Of a stretch of DNA of 64,000 nucleotides, positions 19,138 through 45,040 are shown piece after piece. The number at the start of each line of letters is the position of its first letter. The first letter of the stretch is position 1. Where the stretch lies: positions 12,270 to 76,269 of the forward strand of contig CAZDGK010000001.1 of NCBI GenBank assembly GCA_964505035.1, given 5' to 3'. A program made the translations under genes and the position numbers. The notes beneath the pieces were generated by a model. That model made no database searches and had not been told where the DNA came from. It worked only from the letters and a program-made list of their open reading frames with translations. The DNA comes from an uncultured Candidatus Saccharimonadales bacterium (GTDB lineage Bacteria > Patescibacteriota > Saccharimonadia > UBA4664).

Positions 19138-20076
19138 ATGAAACAGCCGGACCAACCGCTTGATCTGGTGATTATTGGCGCGGGCCCAGCCGGTCTGGCC
19201 GCTGCTGTCTACGCCACTCGCGAGGGGCTTCGGGTGGCAGTACTCGAAAGAGCTGTCGTCGGCGGACTCGCCGCCATCACCGCCACCATCGACAACTATC
19301 CCGGCTTCGACCAAGGGGTCGGCGGCCTGGAGCTAGCCGATCACCTCGCTGCCCATGCCCACCGCTTCGGCGCCGATCTTCGCACCGGTATCGAGGTCAC
19401 CAAGCTCGAGGCCGGCGACGGGGGAGTGCAGCTCACCACCAACCAGGGGCCACTCCACACCCGCAGCGCACTGGTGGCCACCGGCTCGAGCTATCGCCGG
19501 CTCGATGTGCCCGGCGAAGACCGGCTAGTGGGCCGGGGTGTGCACTACTGCGCCACCTGCGATGGTCCGCTCTACCGCGGCAAGGAACTCGTAGTGGTAG
19601 GCGGCGGCAATTCTGCCATGCAGGAGGGGCTATTCCTGGCCCGGTTCGCCAGCCATCTCACTATCTTGGTACGTGGCCACTCACTTGGCGGCACTACCAT
19701 CCTGCGCAATCAGCTTGCCGCCCTGCCCAACGTCTCGGTCGTCTACGACACCCCAGTCACCAGCCTGTCCAAAACTGGCGGCCGGGTGCAGGTCAACCAC
19801 TTGGGCCCAGCGGGGAAGGCCGGCCACCTCACTACCGATGGCGTGTTCGTCTTTGTTGGCCAGCAGGCAAATACCAAAGCCTTCGCCAGCACCCTCAAGC
19901 TCGACCCCCAGGGCTACATCATCACGACACCCGACTTTCGCACCAACCTACCCGGGGTCTACGCCGCCGGTGATGTGCGCTCCGGCAGCACGTGGCAAAT
20001 CGCCAGCGCCGTGGGTGACGGCGTCACAGCCGCCCTGGCCATCCGGGCCGCGCTCTCTGGATCTAGCCGCTCCTAA
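19138..20076 (+). CDS. trxB: Thioredoxin-disulfide reductase.
   Basis: FAD motif 'IIGAGPAGLAAA', redox-active 'CATCDG' and NADPH motif 'VVGGGNSA'. Confidence 0.9.
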   Translation: MKQPDQPLDLVIIGAGPAGLAAAVYATREGLRVAVLERAVVGGLAAITATIDNYPGFDQGVGGLELADHLAAHAHRFGADLRTGIEVTKLEAGDGGVQLTTNQGPLHTRSALVATGSSYRRLDVPGEDRLVGRGVHYCATCDGPLYRGKELVVVGGGNSAMQEGLFLARFASHLTILVRGHSLGGTTILRNQLAALPNVSVVYDTPVTSLSKTGGRVQVNHLGPAGKAGHLTTDGVFVFVGQQANTKAFASTLKLDPQGYIITTPDFRTNLPGVYAAGDVRSGSTWQIASAVGDGVTAALAIRAALSGSSRS

Positions 20077-21392
20077 GGCGCTAGCCGCTTAGTGTCACGC
20101 GGGAATAGCGTGGCCTCCTTCACGTTGCCAAGTCCAATCAGCTCCTGCGTCACGCGCTCCAGCCCCATGCCAAACCCACCGTGCGGCGGCATACCATACT
20201 TGAAGGCCATCAGGAAGTTGCGGAAGCCCTCGCTGTCTGGGTCGCCCTTGGCCATTTTCTTTAGCTGAGCCACCAGCTTGTCGTAGTGGTGCTCACGCAT
20301 GCTAGTGGTCACCACCTCCACGCCCCGAAATAGCAAGTCAGCCCGCACTGCAATCTCTGGCCGCTCATCATCAATCTTGTGATAAAACTTCGCGTCCCGA
20401 GCCGGCCAGTCCGTCACAAACACCGCCTCGCTGCCCAGCTCTTTGGCGGCGTACTCGCAAACCCAGCGCTCTTCGGCTGGCAAAAGGTCCAGTTCGTCGC
20501 GAGTGTTCTCGCCGGTCGCCTTGGAATACAAGTCGTGGATCTCCGCCATCGTCAGTCGAGGCAGCTCCTCCTTGAGCTTTGGCTTAACCGCGCCCAGCAG
20601 TTCCAACTCGTCCTTGGCATGCTCCCAAGCATAGTCCACCATACAGCCGAGCAGCTCGCTGACCATCGTCAGCAGTTGGTCAAAGTCAATGAAACCGACC
20701 TCGGCATCGAGCGAAATATACTCGCTCATATGGCGCGTAGTCACACTGGGCTCAGCCCGGTACACCGGACCCATCTCATACACCCGCTCAAACACCCCCA
20801 CCATCATCTGCTTGTAGAATTGCGGTGATTGCGCCAGTGTGGCCACCTGGCCAAAGTAATCGGTCTTAAACACCTCGGCCCCGCCCTCCGTCGCACCAGG
20901 CAGCAGCTTGGGCGTGTGCACTTCGGTAAACCCACGCTCGTCAAAGTACTCCCGGAACGCCCGGCCCAGCGCTGCTTGTACACGAAAGATGGCCCGCTCG
21001 TTCAAGTTGCGCAAGCCGACTACGCGGTTGTCAAACAACGTGTCGAAGTTCTCGCTTTTGTGATCCAGCGGCTTGTCAATCTCGATCGGCATCACGTCGC
21101 TCACCGGGCTAATCACCGTCAGCTCCGGCTCATGCAGCTCCACGCCACCAGCTGCCCGCGGCTCATCGACCACCTTGCCTTTGATTCGTAGCACCGTGCC
21201 GGCATACAACCCCTCGAGCTTCGCCACCTGCTTTTCGTCCTTCACTACCGCCTGCACAATGCCACTACGGTCGCGCAACACCACAAAGCAGATACCGCCC
21301 AAGTCACGGCGCTTATGCAGCCAGCCACGTACCTCGACTACCTTGCCAATGTGTTTCTTCAATTCACCAATCACTAAATCGTGCATCATCAT
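20073..21392 (-). CDS. aspS: Aspartate--tRNA ligase, archaeal-type class IIb, probably non-discriminating.
   Basis: 439 aa. N-terminal OB fold. 'LAQSPQFYKQMM' is the AspRS QSPQ signature. Class-II motifs 2 and 3 are present. Confidence 0.8.
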   Translation of the reverse strand: MMMHDLVIGELKKHIGKVVEVRGWLHKRRDLGGICFVVLRDRSGIVQAVVKDEKQVAKLEGLYAGTVLRIKGKVVDEPRAAGGVELHEPELTVISPVSDVMPIEIDKPLDHKSENFDTLFDNRVVGLRNLNERAIFRVQAALGRAFREYFDERGFTEVHTPKLLPGATEGGAEVFKTDYFGQVATLAQSPQFYKQMMVGVFERVYEMGPVYRAEPSVTTRHMSEYISLDAEVGFIDFDQLLTMVSELLGCMVDYAWEHAKDELELLGAVKPKLKEELPRLTMAEIHDLYSKATGENTRDELDLLPAEERWVCEYAAKELGSEAVFVTDWPARDAKFYHKIDDERPEIAVRADLLFRGVEVVTTSMREHHYDKLVAQLKKMAKGDPDSEGFRNFLMAFKYGMPPHGGFGMGLERVTQELIGLGNVKEATLFPRDTKRLAP

Positions 21393-21646
21393 CTCCTAAT
21401 AAATACCAAAAACGCCCCGCAACTGCCGGCGATGTACCGGTCAAGCTGCAAGGACGAGTCGTGTCGTGGTGCCACCTTGCTTTACCGCCTATTTATAAGC
21501 GGTCTTATTTGCAGCTATGACGGGCATACCCGGGGAGTTCTAGTGATGGCGCCAAGGCGGCCACGTTCTTCTCCCAGCTCAGCGGTGTCAGCCGCGTCGT
21601 AGCTTGTGACCTCTTTGTAGCACAAACTGGTCACACCAGCAACTCC
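21393..21646 (-). promoter_or_regulatory. Candidate T-box-like leader of aspS.
   Basis: Minus strand reads ...GCAAGGTGGCACCACG.... This resembles the T-box AGGGUGGNACCGCG, with UGGC able to pair the tRNA's GCCA end. A downstream hairpin plus 'GCGUUUUUGG' follows, then an AGGAG RBS and the AUG. Leader is about 250 nt. Confidence 0.3.
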
Positions 21647-21691
21647 ATGCGTTACGTTGTCCTGACCCGCCCCATTCCGTACAATGCGATT

Positions 21692-22123
21692 ATGTTCAAA
21701 CGCCTCGCCGCCATTCTCGTCCTCACGTTGGCTCCGCTGACCGCCTCAGCCGATACCGCCAGTGAGCTCGGGCCCACCACGAGCGGAGGCACAGGTAGTC
21801 CGACCGGCGCCTCATCGTCTCTGCAGCCAGCCGGCACCTCACCAGTTCAGTCGAGCACAGGCGCCGGATCCCAGCTGTCTGCTCCCACCACCGGCGAGAC
21901 CCTGCAGGGACAGGACGCGTCACCGCAACTGCAACTCCTACTTCAGCAAGACGCCGACGGCACGCCGCAAAATGTCGCCGACCAGTCCGGCGGCGATCTG
22001 GTCTGGCTCGATGCCCTCGTTGCCTTTGTCACCCTGGCGGCCGTCTTTACCCTCCTAGCCACCGTCGTCCGCCGGCGCTTGGCCCGGCGCCTCACACCGC
22101 ATCAATCCCGCCCCAACCAGTAG
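21692..22123 (+). CDS. Secreted low-complexity (Ser/Thr/Gly/Gln-rich) protein with a C-terminal TM anchor.
   Basis: Signal peptide 'MFKRLAAILVLTLAPLTASA'. TACAAT 8 nt upstream of the ATG. The C-terminal hydrophobic helix is followed by RRRLARR. Confidence 0.45.
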   Translation: MFKRLAAILVLTLAPLTASADTASELGPTTSGGTGSPTGASSSLQPAGTSPVQSSTGAGSQLSAPTTGETLQGQDASPQLQLLLQQDADGTPQNVADQSGGDLVWLDALVAFVTLAAVFTLLATVVRRRLARRLTPHQSRPNQ

Positions 22124-22144
22124 CCGGCCGCATCAAAAACGGTT

Positions 22145-23806
22145 ATGCTGAGAGCCATGAAGGCCCGCTTAGCGCGACCCGTATTCGACCGGGACGAGCA
22201 CTATGAATCCGCCTCCCGGCAAATCCGGTGGGTCTGTTTTTCGCTCATTCTGATCACCTACCCAAGCAACCAACCCTTCAGCCTAGTCGTCCTCACCATC
22301 ATGATCGCGGTCGGCGTCTACAACCTCCTGCGCTATCACCCCAGCCTGATGGCCCGGCCGGCCTTTGCGTCACGCATCAATTCACTCACCGTCGACCACG
22401 TTTTTGTGCTGGCCATCGTCCTGCTATCGGGCGGTCTATCCAGCCCGTACTATCCGATGATTTTCCTGCTCATCATTGGCGTCATTGCCTCCTTTGGCGT
22501 GGCCGGATTCGCTCTGGCCCTCGCCGGCCAGCTCATCGTCACGCTCGTCATGCTGGCTTACCGCACCCCCACGCTGCCAGACTCGCCAGAGTTTGACTTC
22601 ATCATCCGGCTGGTACTGCTCGTCATCTTCAGCCTCGTCGCGGTCCAGTCGGTCCGCAGTCGCAACGAGGAGTACCTGCTCGAAACCCGTTTCAGCCACC
22701 GAGTCGAAAACGAGCGTCAGCGCCTGCTCAGCCTCATCAACTCGCTGTCCGACGCCGTCATCGCCATCGCGGCCGACGGCAAAGTCTACCTCTACAATGC
22801 TGCCGCGCTCGCCATCCTCAATACCAACCGCAACATCAATGGCTCACTCATCAGCGACCTCCTACCAATGCACGACTCCAAGTACGCCTCAGTCGACCTC
22901 ATGTCGCTCATCTCCAGCCTCACTCGCCAAACCAACCGCCAAGACCTCACCTACATCGCCAGCGACGGCTCCGAAATGGTACTCGACCTCACCATCTCAC
23001 CCGTCCACGTCATGGGCGGCAGCGGCCGCGGCGGCGGCTACATGCTAGTGTTTCGCGACATCACCAAGCAAAAATCGCTCGACGAAGAGCGCGACGAGTT
23101 TATCTCAGTCACTTCCCACGAGCTACGCACACCGCTGGCTATTGCCGAAGCCAATCTGTCCACCGCACTGCTGCCTGGATTCGCCAAAATTGACCCGAAA
23201 GCTCTCAATCTCCTCAACCAGGCTCATGACAATGTGGTATTCCTGAGCAAACTCATTCAGGATCTATCCACCCTGTCGCGAGCCGAGCGCGGCGACCTCA
23301 AGATCGAAAAAAGCGTGGTTGACCTCAAGGAGCTAGTCACCAACCTAGCCCGCGACTATCGCTCCCAGGCCGAGACCAAAGGCCTCAAGCTCGAGCTCGA
23401 GGTAGACGACGAGACGCGCAATGTCATCACCAGCGAGCCGGAGTTGCGCGAAATTCTCCAAAACTTCCTCACCAATGCCATCAAGTACACCACCAAAGGC
23501 TCGGTCACGCTCGCACTAACCCACCACCAGCACAGCGCCGACGTAACCGTTCATGACACCGGCATCGGCATCTCCGCCAGCGACAAGGCCAAGATATTCG
23601 CCAAATTCTATCGCTCCGAGGATTATCGCACCCGGGCCACCGGCGGCACCGGACTGGGGCTCTACATCACAAAAAAGCTAGCTGAGCGACTCGGTTTCGA
23701 GATCGAGTTCACCTCCAAGCTCAACCACGGCTCGACCTTCACTCTCCACTTGCCTTACCGTGTCAGCGACGAGCCGAAGCCTGCCACCCCCACACCTGTA
23801 CGGTAG
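22145..23806 (+). CDS. Sensor histidine kinase with an N-terminal multi-TM domain, PAS, HisKA and HATPase_c domains.
   Basis: H-box 'VTSHELRTPLAIAEAN'. G-boxes 'GGTGLGLYITKKLAERLGF'. Confidence 0.85.
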   Translation: MLRAMKARLARPVFDRDEHYESASRQIRWVCFSLILITYPSNQPFSLVVLTIMIAVGVYNLLRYHPSLMARPAFASRINSLTVDHVFVLAIVLLSGGLSSPYYPMIFLLIIGVIASFGVAGFALALAGQLIVTLVMLAYRTPTLPDSPEFDFIIRLVLLVIFSLVAVQSVRSRNEEYLLETRFSHRVENERQRLLSLINSLSDAVIAIAADGKVYLYNAAALAILNTNRNINGSLISDLLPMHDSKYASVDLMSLISSLTRQTNRQDLTYIASDGSEMVLDLTISPVHVMGGSGRGGGYMLVFRDITKQKSLDEERDEFISVTSHELRTPLAIAEANLSTALLPGFAKIDPKALNLLNQAHDNVVFLSKLIQDLSTLSRAERGDLKIEKSVVDLKELVTNLARDYRSQAETKGLKLELEVDDETRNVITSEPELREILQNFLTNAIKYTTKGSVTLALTHHQHSADVTVHDTGIGISASDKAKIFAKFYRSEDYRTRATGGTGLGLYITKKLAERLGFEIEFTSKLNHGSTFTLHLPYRVSDEPKPATPTPVR

Positions 23807-43997: not shown

Positions 43998-44528
43998 ATG
44001 GCCATTTCTCGTGAGGCCAAGGAGTCGGCGGTAGCTCAGCTAACGCAGGACCTCAGCCACATCAAATTGGCCGTCATGACCGACTACCGCGGTCTCACCG
44101 TCGGTGAAGTAGAGGAGTTGCGCAATCTGCTCCGTGCTCAGGGTATGACCTACCGGGTCACCAAGAACACGCTGCTGCGCATCGCCACCAAAGCCAATGC
44201 GGCCCTGGCCGACATTGACCCACAGAGCTTCACCGGCCCCATGGCCCTGGCGATGGGCTTTGATGATGAAGTGGCTCCGGCCCGCGTCATCTTCCAGTAC
44301 GCCAAGGCGCATGACGCGCTTGAGGTGGTAGGCGCCATCACCGGCGACGGACAGCTATTATCTGCCGCCGACGTGAAGGCCCTGGCCACGCTACCCACTC
44401 GCGAGCAACTCATTGCTCAGGTGGTCGGCACCATCGCGGCACCCCTCACCGGGTTTGTCGGTGTCATGGCGGGCAACGTCCGCTCCATCATTAATGTTCT
44501 AAACGCTCTGAGCGAAGCTCGGGCCTAA
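43998..44528 (+). CDS. rplJ: 50S ribosomal protein L10.
   Basis: Size, conserved N-terminal region and position next to rplL. Confidence 0.9.
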   Translation: MAISREAKESAVAQLTQDLSHIKLAVMTDYRGLTVGEVEELRNLLRAQGMTYRVTKNTLLRIATKANAALADIDPQSFTGPMALAMGFDDEVAPARVIFQYAKAHDALEVVGAITGDGQLLSAADVKALATLPTREQLIAQVVGTIAAPLTGFVGVMAGNVRSIINVLNALSEARA

Positions 44529-44550: not shown

Positions 44551-44994
44551 ATGGCAGAAGACAAGGTCGAAACGACCGAAACCACCGAGACCGAAACGGT
44601 TGAGATCCCCAAGAAGTTTAAGGAGCTAGTCGAGGCTATCGACAAGCTCAGCGTGCTGGAGCTCAGCGAGCTCGTCAAGGTGCTCGAGAAGCACTACGGC
44701 GTGTCCGCTGCCGCCCCCATGGCTGTAGCCGCTGCTCCGGCCGCTGCTGGTGACGGCGAAGGTGCCGCTGCCGCCGAGGAGAAGACCACCTTCACCGTGG
44801 TACTAGCCGACGCTGGTGCCAACAAGATCAATGTCATCAAGGCCGTTCGTGAGATCACCGGCCTGGGCCTGGCCGAGTCCAAGGCTCTGGTCGACGGCGC
44901 CCCCAAGCCGGTCAAGGAAAATGTCTCCAAGACCGACGCCGAAGACGCCAAGGCCAAGCTGACCGAGGCCGGCGCCACCGTCGAGCTCCAGTAA
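44551..44994 (+). CDS. rplL: 50S ribosomal protein L7/L12.
   Basis: Ala-rich hinge and '[24 protein letters not shown]'. Confidence 0.95.
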
Positions 44995-45018: not shown

Positions 45019-45040
45019 GAGCCCACCCGGGCTCTTTTTT
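45019..45040 (+). terminator. Rho-independent terminator after rplL.
   Basis: GAGCCC-accc-GGGCTC followed by TTTTTT. Confidence 0.6.

Follow-up and report, generated by a model that had tools for sequence, protein, structure and literature searches.

The 5' leader of aspS in a Candidatus Saccharimonadales genome, at positions 21408-21608 on the minus strand of the 64,000-nt stretch of DNA analysed here (the window), is a T-box leader and appears to be a genuine riboswitch that is specific for tRNA-Asp and most likely works by transcription attenuation. It carries an ultrashort Stem I together with an intrinsic terminator (Table 1) and, judging from the homologous leaders, would represent a conserved, lineage-specific variant of CPR bacteria. 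We regard it as highly probable that attenuation controls aspS according to whether tRNA-Asp is charged.

Table 1. Features of the aspS leader and its gene, in the order of transcription (positions are those of the window).
Feature	Positions	Strand	Composition	Basis
Putative -35 hexamer	21637..21642	-	TTGCTG; 17 nt upstream of -10	Read from the sequence
Extended -10	21614..21622	-	TGcTACAAA	TGnTAnnAn conserved in homologous leaders
Ultrashort Stem I	21576..21604	-	29 nt	RF00230 alignment, covariation
Specifier and 3' purine	GAC 21589-21587; A 21586	-	GAC (Asp codon) followed by conserved purine A	Apical loop, conservation
Stem II	21533..21575	-	Lower helix GGGAG/CUCCC, S-turn internal loop AAGAAC/CUAGAA, variable distal hairpin	
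Stem IIA, F-box and tail	21512..21532	-	CGGG/CCCG; F-box CCGUCA (21523-21518); tail that would form IIB	Conservation
Stem III	21484..21503	-	Hairpin; AAUAAG before, AAA after	Covariation; RF00230, high posterior probability
Antiterminator	21448..21480	-	A1 GCAAGG/CCUUGC, 7-nt bulge UGGCACC (21474-21468), A2 ACGA/UCGU	
Terminator hairpin	21413..21456	-	5' strand CGUCCUUGC, overlapping the antiterminator A1 3' strand	
U-run	21408..21412	-	UUUUU, directly 3' of the terminator stem	U-run after hairpin in 13/13 leaders
Shine-Dalgarno (SD)	21393..21397	-	AGGAG; 10 nt 3' of the U-run, outside the hairpin	Sequence
aspS	ORF 20073-21392; likely coding 20073..21386	-	Archaeal-type non-discriminating AspRS (ND-AspRS)	NF003483; homolog length

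The leader and its target gene

The aspS ORF scored 483.5 bits with the NCBIfam model NF003483 (aspartate--tRNA(Asn) ligase), against a cutoff of 353. It offers three AUG codons, at 21392, 21389 and 21386 (minus strand), and the third is the likely start, giving a protein of 437 amino acids that begins 6 nt past the SD; this AUG is favoured because the database copy (P0001) and the close homologs are 437 amino acids long. The sequence strings quoted in the first-pass annotation, which had proposed a T-box upstream of this gene, are all present on the minus strand where it had placed them (GCAAGGUGGCACCACGAC at 21480-21463, GGCUGACACCG at 21593-21583 and GCGUUUUUGG at 21415-21406), and so is the order that it described at the 3' end, with an AGGAG ribosome-binding site (21397-21393) and then AUG following the hairpin and U-run.

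A scan of the whole window at Rfam gathering thresholds reported no T-box, the gathering score of RF00230 being 93. In E-value mode, the full span of the same model (positions 1-219) aligned to 21447-21609 on the minus strand with 47.5 bits, at an E-value of 1.9e-9 over a 501-nt stretch and of 2.5e-7 over the whole window. The match is thus far beyond chance. Within it, 4 nt stand in for 74 consensus positions of Stem I, and the score falls below the gathering score, a curation cut-off rather than a biological feature, because these roughly 74 positions are absent, which represents a natural truncation. Of the pair of findings that, according to the first-pass annotation, would speak against a T-box, the first, no RF00230 hit above threshold, was therefore obtained and the second, no foldable Stem I, was not; the T-box identity itself is upheld by the end-to-end alignment together with the same architecture, and compensatory changes, in 12 other leaders. 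All 13 leaders score 39-59 bits with RF00230 and are consequently missed by annotation at the gathering threshold.

The TGnTAnnAn motif of the extended -10 keeps a constant distance from the first model position (-14/-15) in 12 of the 13 homologous leaders, and the remaining one, from the Peregrinibacteria (L043), has an alternative promoter (TTGACA-17-TACAAT). A consensus promoter scan did not report a promoter for the aspS leader; its -10 rule demands T at position 6. The motif would place the transcript start at about 21606-21609, at the base of Stem I. With the conserved extended -10 lying immediately 5' of Stem I, there would be no additional 5' RNA in which a distal part of Stem I could be hidden.

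Divergently from the leader, the window carries two genes (21647-23806, plus strand). The first encodes a small protein with no Pfam match and with a signal-peptide-like N-terminus (MFKRLAAILVLTLAPLTA) when read from the second AUG, and is preceded by a promoter-like site at 21657-21685 (plus strand); the second (22145-23806, plus strand) encodes a PAS-domain histidine kinase.

Expression platform

The 3' part of the leader can adopt two mutually exclusive folds that have one strand in common, an arrangement found in 13 of 13 leaders. In the antiterminator, which alone folds at -8.7 kcal/mol, helices A1 and A2 are paired in 100% of alignment cells, with compensatory changes, and the UGGC singled out by the first-pass annotation proved to be the first four bases of the canonical 7-nt bulge between them. 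The antiterminator and terminator pair that it had recognized is likewise present: the 3' strand of A1, GUCCUUGC, doubles as the 5' strand of a terminator hairpin of -24.8 kcal/mol (z -3.43; 0 of 200 shuffles were as stable), directly followed by U5. This hairpin escaped the consensus terminator scan around the leader owing to its branching and to the scan's loop limit of 8 nt; terminator energies were taken from direct folding instead.

The last eight antiterminator bases pair alternatively with the downstream strand in all 13 leaders. Antiterminators range from -7 to -10 kcal/mol across this set, and terminators from -19 to -32 kcal/mol in 12 leaders, with -8.8 kcal/mol in the AT-rich L043. 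Where A1 has changed from G-C to A-U (L166 and L174), the terminator partner still pairs. Given an antiterminator of only -8.7 kcal/mol, the default outcome would be termination, as in classical T-boxes.

These features bear on whether the hairpin terminates at all. Ultrashort Stem I elements have so far been tied to translational control; two leaders (L162 and L043) show no SD and have only 0-3 nt between the end of the U-run and the predicted start codon, so that the hairpin might affect initiation there; and one Acidimicrobiaceae aspS leader (L063) combines a short Stem I with the absence of a U-run. All of this would suit a T-box that regulates translation or the stability of the mRNA, in the manner of the actinobacterial ultrashort ileS T-boxes, with a hairpin that does not terminate. 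Such a mode of action is nevertheless improbable for the leaders described here. In the window and nine other leaders (10 of the 13), an SD or SD-like motif lies 3-17 nt 3' of the U-run, outside the conserved helices; the U-run comes directly after the stem in 13 of 13, and a sequestrator would not need one; and, as class I T-boxes also show, the hairpin greatly exceeds the antiterminator in stability. Since the SD is located 3' of the U-run, the helix does not sequester the ribosome-binding site, and control is most likely transcriptional.

With the discriminator G73 that is general in bacterial tRNA-Asp and tRNA-Asn, the UGGC of the bulge could pair with the GCCA 3' end of the tRNA. ARAGORN found no tRNA in the window and, across 60 related loci, only tRNA-Thr and tRNA-Arg, with neither tRNA-Asp nor tRNA-Asn among them. 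The bulge reads UGGCACC in the Saccharibacteria members and in the Candidatus Peribacteria leader (L031), and UGGUACC in L043 (1532-1540), where the sequence implies that the cognate tRNA would have the discriminator A73.

tRNA-binding half and specifier

Stem I consists of a three-pair base (A-U, G-C and C-G), a K-turn, a 4-bp top helix (GCGG/CCGC) and a 6-nt apical loop (CUGACA). The K-turn is formed by a 3-nt bulge (UAC) and tandem G.A/A.G pairs, following the pattern GC-NNN-GA ... GA-GC, whose G and A positions are invariant among the leaders. The distal platform is absent, that is, there is no long Stem I with an interdigitated T-loop platform. Covariation is seen at pair 16-25 (GC/AU/UA) and at the closing pair 5-34 (AU/GC), and the top helix variants GCGG/CCGC, GCAG/CUGC and GCUG/CAGC all enclose an invariant GACA. 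A Stem I able to fold had been set beforehand as a test of the T-box proposal, and this one both folds and covaries, with every other module present.

The GAC-A proposed as a candidate specifier in the first-pass annotation thus lies in the apical loop of Stem I. GACA is constant in 12 leaders, the two loop bases 5' of it being variable (CU/CC/UC), and L031 has AACA (Asn) at this position with the same enzyme family encoded downstream. Since the enzyme charges both tRNA-Asp and tRNA-Asn, a GAC/AAC switch is the pattern to be expected of a functional specifier, and the specifier seems to track the gene, all 13 leaders preceding ND-AspRS genes recognized by NF003483. Both GAC and AAC end in C, in keeping with the T-box 'C rule' (PMC7583486).

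The same observations raise the question of which tRNA is read, as tRNA-Asn might be sensed besides or instead of tRNA-Asp if GAC paired with the GUU anticodon via a first-position G.U wobble. The gene is annotated as a non-discriminating aspartate--tRNA(Asn) ligase, and an orthologous Peribacteria leader has AAC at the same loop position. Elsewhere, the title of Saad et al. (J Biol Chem, 2012) names a T-box that controls the tRNA-dependent route to Asn in Clostridium acetobutylicum, and that of another paper refers to partial induction of a Lys T-box by tRNA-Asn (PMC2916919). Against this, every T-box variety known recognizes the anticodon through three Watson-Crick pairs with the specifier (PMC7583486), and GAC has been kept constant in 12 leaders where AAC would allow tRNA-Asn to be read directly. 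We therefore consider sensing of tRNA-Asn by the window leader unlikely, and tRNA-Asp the probable ligand.

Downstream of Stem I, Stem II shows compensatory changes in nine of nine counted pairs, with AAGAA and UAGAAC invariant in its internal loop. The conserved IIA helix shows a single swap, from C-G to U-A. For the IIB pseudoknot, UAUG/CAUA fits the window leader, and inspection of the relatives (alignment A2, see below) gave no consistent covariation. In Stem III all four outer pairs covary (4/4); the preceding G is found in 12 of 13 leaders (U in L043) and the AA that follows in all 13, and the purine string 5' of the stem (RRRxG) is matched in part only (AUAAG, AUGAG).

Covariation and distribution

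Covariation was measured on a MAFFT alignment of 12 sequences (A2), onto which 33 pairs were mapped from the T-box model. In this alignment, 98.0% of cells are paired, compared with 36-45% when the partners are slid, 17 of the 33 pairs have changed on both sides, and not one of the five measures used is reached by any of 500 shuffles. Adding L031 by alignment to the model (A3), which leans the result towards the structure, gave 98.6% paired cells and compensatory changes at 20 of 33 pairs, again unmatched by any of 500 shuffles. RNAalifold, with no structure imposed, recovered the same helices (36 pairs, 18 of them compensatory) and lengthened the base of Stem I by a covarying pair. Little or no variation was seen in the tertiary motifs that a 2020 review lists (PMC7583486), namely UGGN-ACC, the F-box, the purines of the S-turn, the G and A bases of the K-turn and the AA that follows Stem III.

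Among 185,579 species genomes, the nearest AspRS relatives are encoded in Saccharibacteria/Patescibacteria MAGs, two with 80% identity (L001 and L004) and about 25 others with 53-64%, which places the window in a CPR bacterium of the Saccharimonadia. Of the Saccharibacteria relatives found in this genome scan, L004 alone has the leader; in L001 a divergent ORF abuts aspS and the leader is absent, and none was found in the Saccharibacteria at 53-64% AspRS identity, using a regular expression and the covariance model R1. A protein search revealed a close AspRS clade (66-85% identity), and contigs of this clade provided ten further distinct leaders (L082, L161, L162, L165, L166, L167, L170, L174, L176 and a partial one, L081); the contigs examined for three other members (L168, L172 and L178) lack it.

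The ultrashort form also precedes aspS in a Peregrinibacteria MAG (L043), whose AspRS is 46% identical. R1, built from 12 leaders, further detected it in a Candidatus Peribacteria MAG (L031) that lay outside the training set, with 88.7 bits and an E-value of 1.6e-26. Both of these genes are ND-AspRS by NF003483, the AsnRS models scoring below cutoff.

The leader is therefore patchy, four AspRS relatives at 66-80% identity being without it (L001, L168, L172 and L178), which points to repeated loss or to lateral acquisition within CPR. Such outright loss in close relatives, together with the missing platform that is essential in studied transcriptional T-boxes, is what one might expect of a decaying relic, a T-box that lost the distal part of Stem I and with it its regulatory function, so that the resemblance is only historical. 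This reading is very unlikely, given that 13 lineages, down to 46-48% AspRS identity, keep all the remaining modules, with 20 of 33 pairs compensatory in the model-aligned set; that the bases of the tertiary motifs are invariant and the terminator strand co-varies with the antiterminator; and that the specifier has changed in a meaningful way, from GAC to AAC. The view that a short GC-rich motif resembles the T-box consensus by chance, in favour of which the score under the RF00230 gathering threshold might speak, can be dismissed almost with certainty in view of the E-value over the window, the full modular architecture, and its conservation and covariation in orthologous leaders.

Other T-box arrangements were seen in front of aspS genes more distant from that of the window. 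Archaeal-type aspS genes of Chloroflexi and Firmicutes have T-boxes with full-length Stem I, which score 20-39 bits with R1. An Acidimicrobiaceae (Actinobacteria) aspS (L063, 2773-2967) is preceded by a short-Stem-I T-box (GGAG-AUGGACC-CUCC) with GAC in the loop, no U-run and an SD close to the helix, which suggests a translational ultrashort T-box on aspS rather than on ileS. In an Anaerolineae aspS leader (L039, about 2640-2990), two T-box cores occur in tandem, GGUGGUACC and then GGUGGCACC; the first has its own terminator and the second seems to comprise Stem III and the antiterminator only.

Other elements in the window and on related contigs

The window also contains a match to the ribosomal protein L10 leader (RF00557; 43843-43980, plus strand; 42.5 bits, gathering score 44), directly upstream of rplJ (43998-44528, Pfam Ribosomal_L10) and rplL (44551-44994, Ribosomal_L12). 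This is probably a real autoregulatory leader missed by the threshold. Terminators made up of a hairpin and a U-run occur at other gene ends in the window too, for example after rplL, where the hairpin and T-run are bidirectional (45019-45034). Overall, terminator-like sites are modestly enriched in the window over shuffled sequences (23 vs 15.2±4.1 and 18 vs 15.5±4.0). On one of the related Saccharimonadia contigs (L165, 2028-2082, minus strand), a match to the type III hammerhead ribozyme (RF00008; 37.4 bits against a gathering score of 48.5, E-value 1.5e-4) lies 14 nt 3' of the aspS stop codon.

Proposed mechanism

From the anatomy of the leader and its homology with studied T-boxes, we infer tRNA binding, charge sensing, termination and a role for Stem II along the following lines. 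Transcription would start a few bases before Stem I, and the apical loop of the nascent ultrashort Stem I would offer GAC-A to the GUC anticodon. The absence of an elbow-binding platform would have to be compensated, presumably with a contribution from Stem II. If the tRNA is uncharged, its GCCA 3' end would pair with the UGGC bulge and stabilize the otherwise weak antiterminator, allowing RNA polymerase to read into aspS; with a charged tRNA, or none, the much more stable terminator would form with the shared GUCCUUGC strand and transcription would stop at the U-run, upstream of the ribosome-binding site. Efficient co-transcriptional sensing by so short a form is not guaranteed, given the general requirement for a long platform set out in a review of the field (PMC7583486).

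Gene regulation in Patescibacteria has been described as "virtually unknown" (2024 perspective, PMC11665869). Our literature search found no paper linking T-box riboswitches with Saccharibacteria, CPR or Patescibacteria, and novelty was judged from reviews and databases; the short-Stem-I terminator form may already be noted somewhere in the primary literature on reduced T-boxes. With these points in mind, we suggest, at a little short of an even chance, that the leaders constitute an undescribed T-box class restricted to CPR (a Saccharimonadia subclade, Peregrinibacteria and Peribacteria), which would terminate transcription co-transcriptionally without an elbow platform, use only an apical-loop specifier and the Stem II domain, and toggle between Asp (GAC) and Asn (AAC) on the same ND-AspRS; it would then be the first native riboswitch-type regulator documented for such epibiotic, genome-reduced bacteria.

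Comparison with known T-boxes

The T-box field distinguishes transcriptional T-boxes with a long Stem I from translational ones with a short Stem I, the latter mostly from Actinobacteria. Most translational T-boxes have an intermediate or ultrashort Stem I without the interdigitated T-loop platform, and the specifier is located in the apical loop only in short Stem I elements, whereas in transcriptional T-boxes rapid capture of the tRNA generally depends on the platform of a long Stem I, and disruption of the platform abolished readthrough in vivo (PMC7583486). The stated rationale for this split is that RNA polymerase can be beaten to the terminator only if the elbow platform captures the tRNA quickly (PMC7583486). 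A conserved leader that has both a short Stem I and a terminator is thus a direct natural test of the kinetic argument. In TBDB, a truncated Stem I is treated as class II (translational), and class II was searched for in Actinobacteria only; leaders of the present type would be missed by this search as well as by Rfam annotation at the gathering threshold. As AspRS supplies both Asp-tRNA and the precursor of Asn-tRNA, the leader offers a handle on amino-acid sensing in host-dependent cells, and it could be used as a native part for regulation in the genetic tools under development for Patescibacteria.

The closest counterparts in the tRNA-binding half are the actinobacterial ileS T-boxes with ultrashort Stem I, described from Mycobacterium smegmatis, M. 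tuberculosis and Nocardia farcinica (Sherwood et al., 2015; structures 6UFG and 6UFM; via PMC7583486). These share with the aspS leader the short Stem I with a basal K-turn and a specifier plus purine in the apical loop, Stem II with the S-turn purine string, the F-box CCGUCA with its IIA helix (and a putative IIB pairing here), Stem III and the 7-nt bulge. In N. farcinica ileS the F-box is identical and the purines of Stem II occupy matching positions; the A 3' of the specifier, GAA, UAGA and the F-box are spaced as in the aspS leader to within about 5 nt. The aspS leader differs in having a terminator and U-run upstream of the SD rather than an SD sequestrator, in its gene (aspS, encoding ND-AspRS), in its specifier (GAC/AAC instead of AUC) and in its CPR hosts.

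With class I T-boxes such as those of Bacillus subtilis tyrS and glyQS, the leader has in common an antiterminator and terminator built on a common strand, the U-run, AAGGUGGCACCACG, Stem III and an aminoacyl-tRNA synthetase gene as target, and it shares Stem II and a putative IIA/B element with the non-glycine members of the class. Unlike them, it has no specifier internal loop, AG bulge, distal loop or elbow-binding interdigitated T-loop platform. The long-Stem-I aspS T-boxes of Chloroflexi and Firmicutes (L040, L042, L049, L050, L065, L072, L075, L057 and L070) resemble it in gene family, in GAC followed by A (gaaGACAc) and in the T-box core, but their Stem I is full-length and holds the specifier in an internal loop.

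The Asn T-box of Clostridium acetobutylicum, a Firmicute element with a conventional Stem I, reportedly controls tRNA-dependent asparagine formation. It stands before an ND-AspRS pathway and reads tRNA-Asn, in which it is like the Peribacteria leader with AAC, whereas the window leader has GAC. Taken as a whole, the aspS leader would appear from its sequence to join the tRNA-binding half of actinobacterial class II T-boxes to a class I expression platform, and it does so outside their phylum-level group and in front of another gene.
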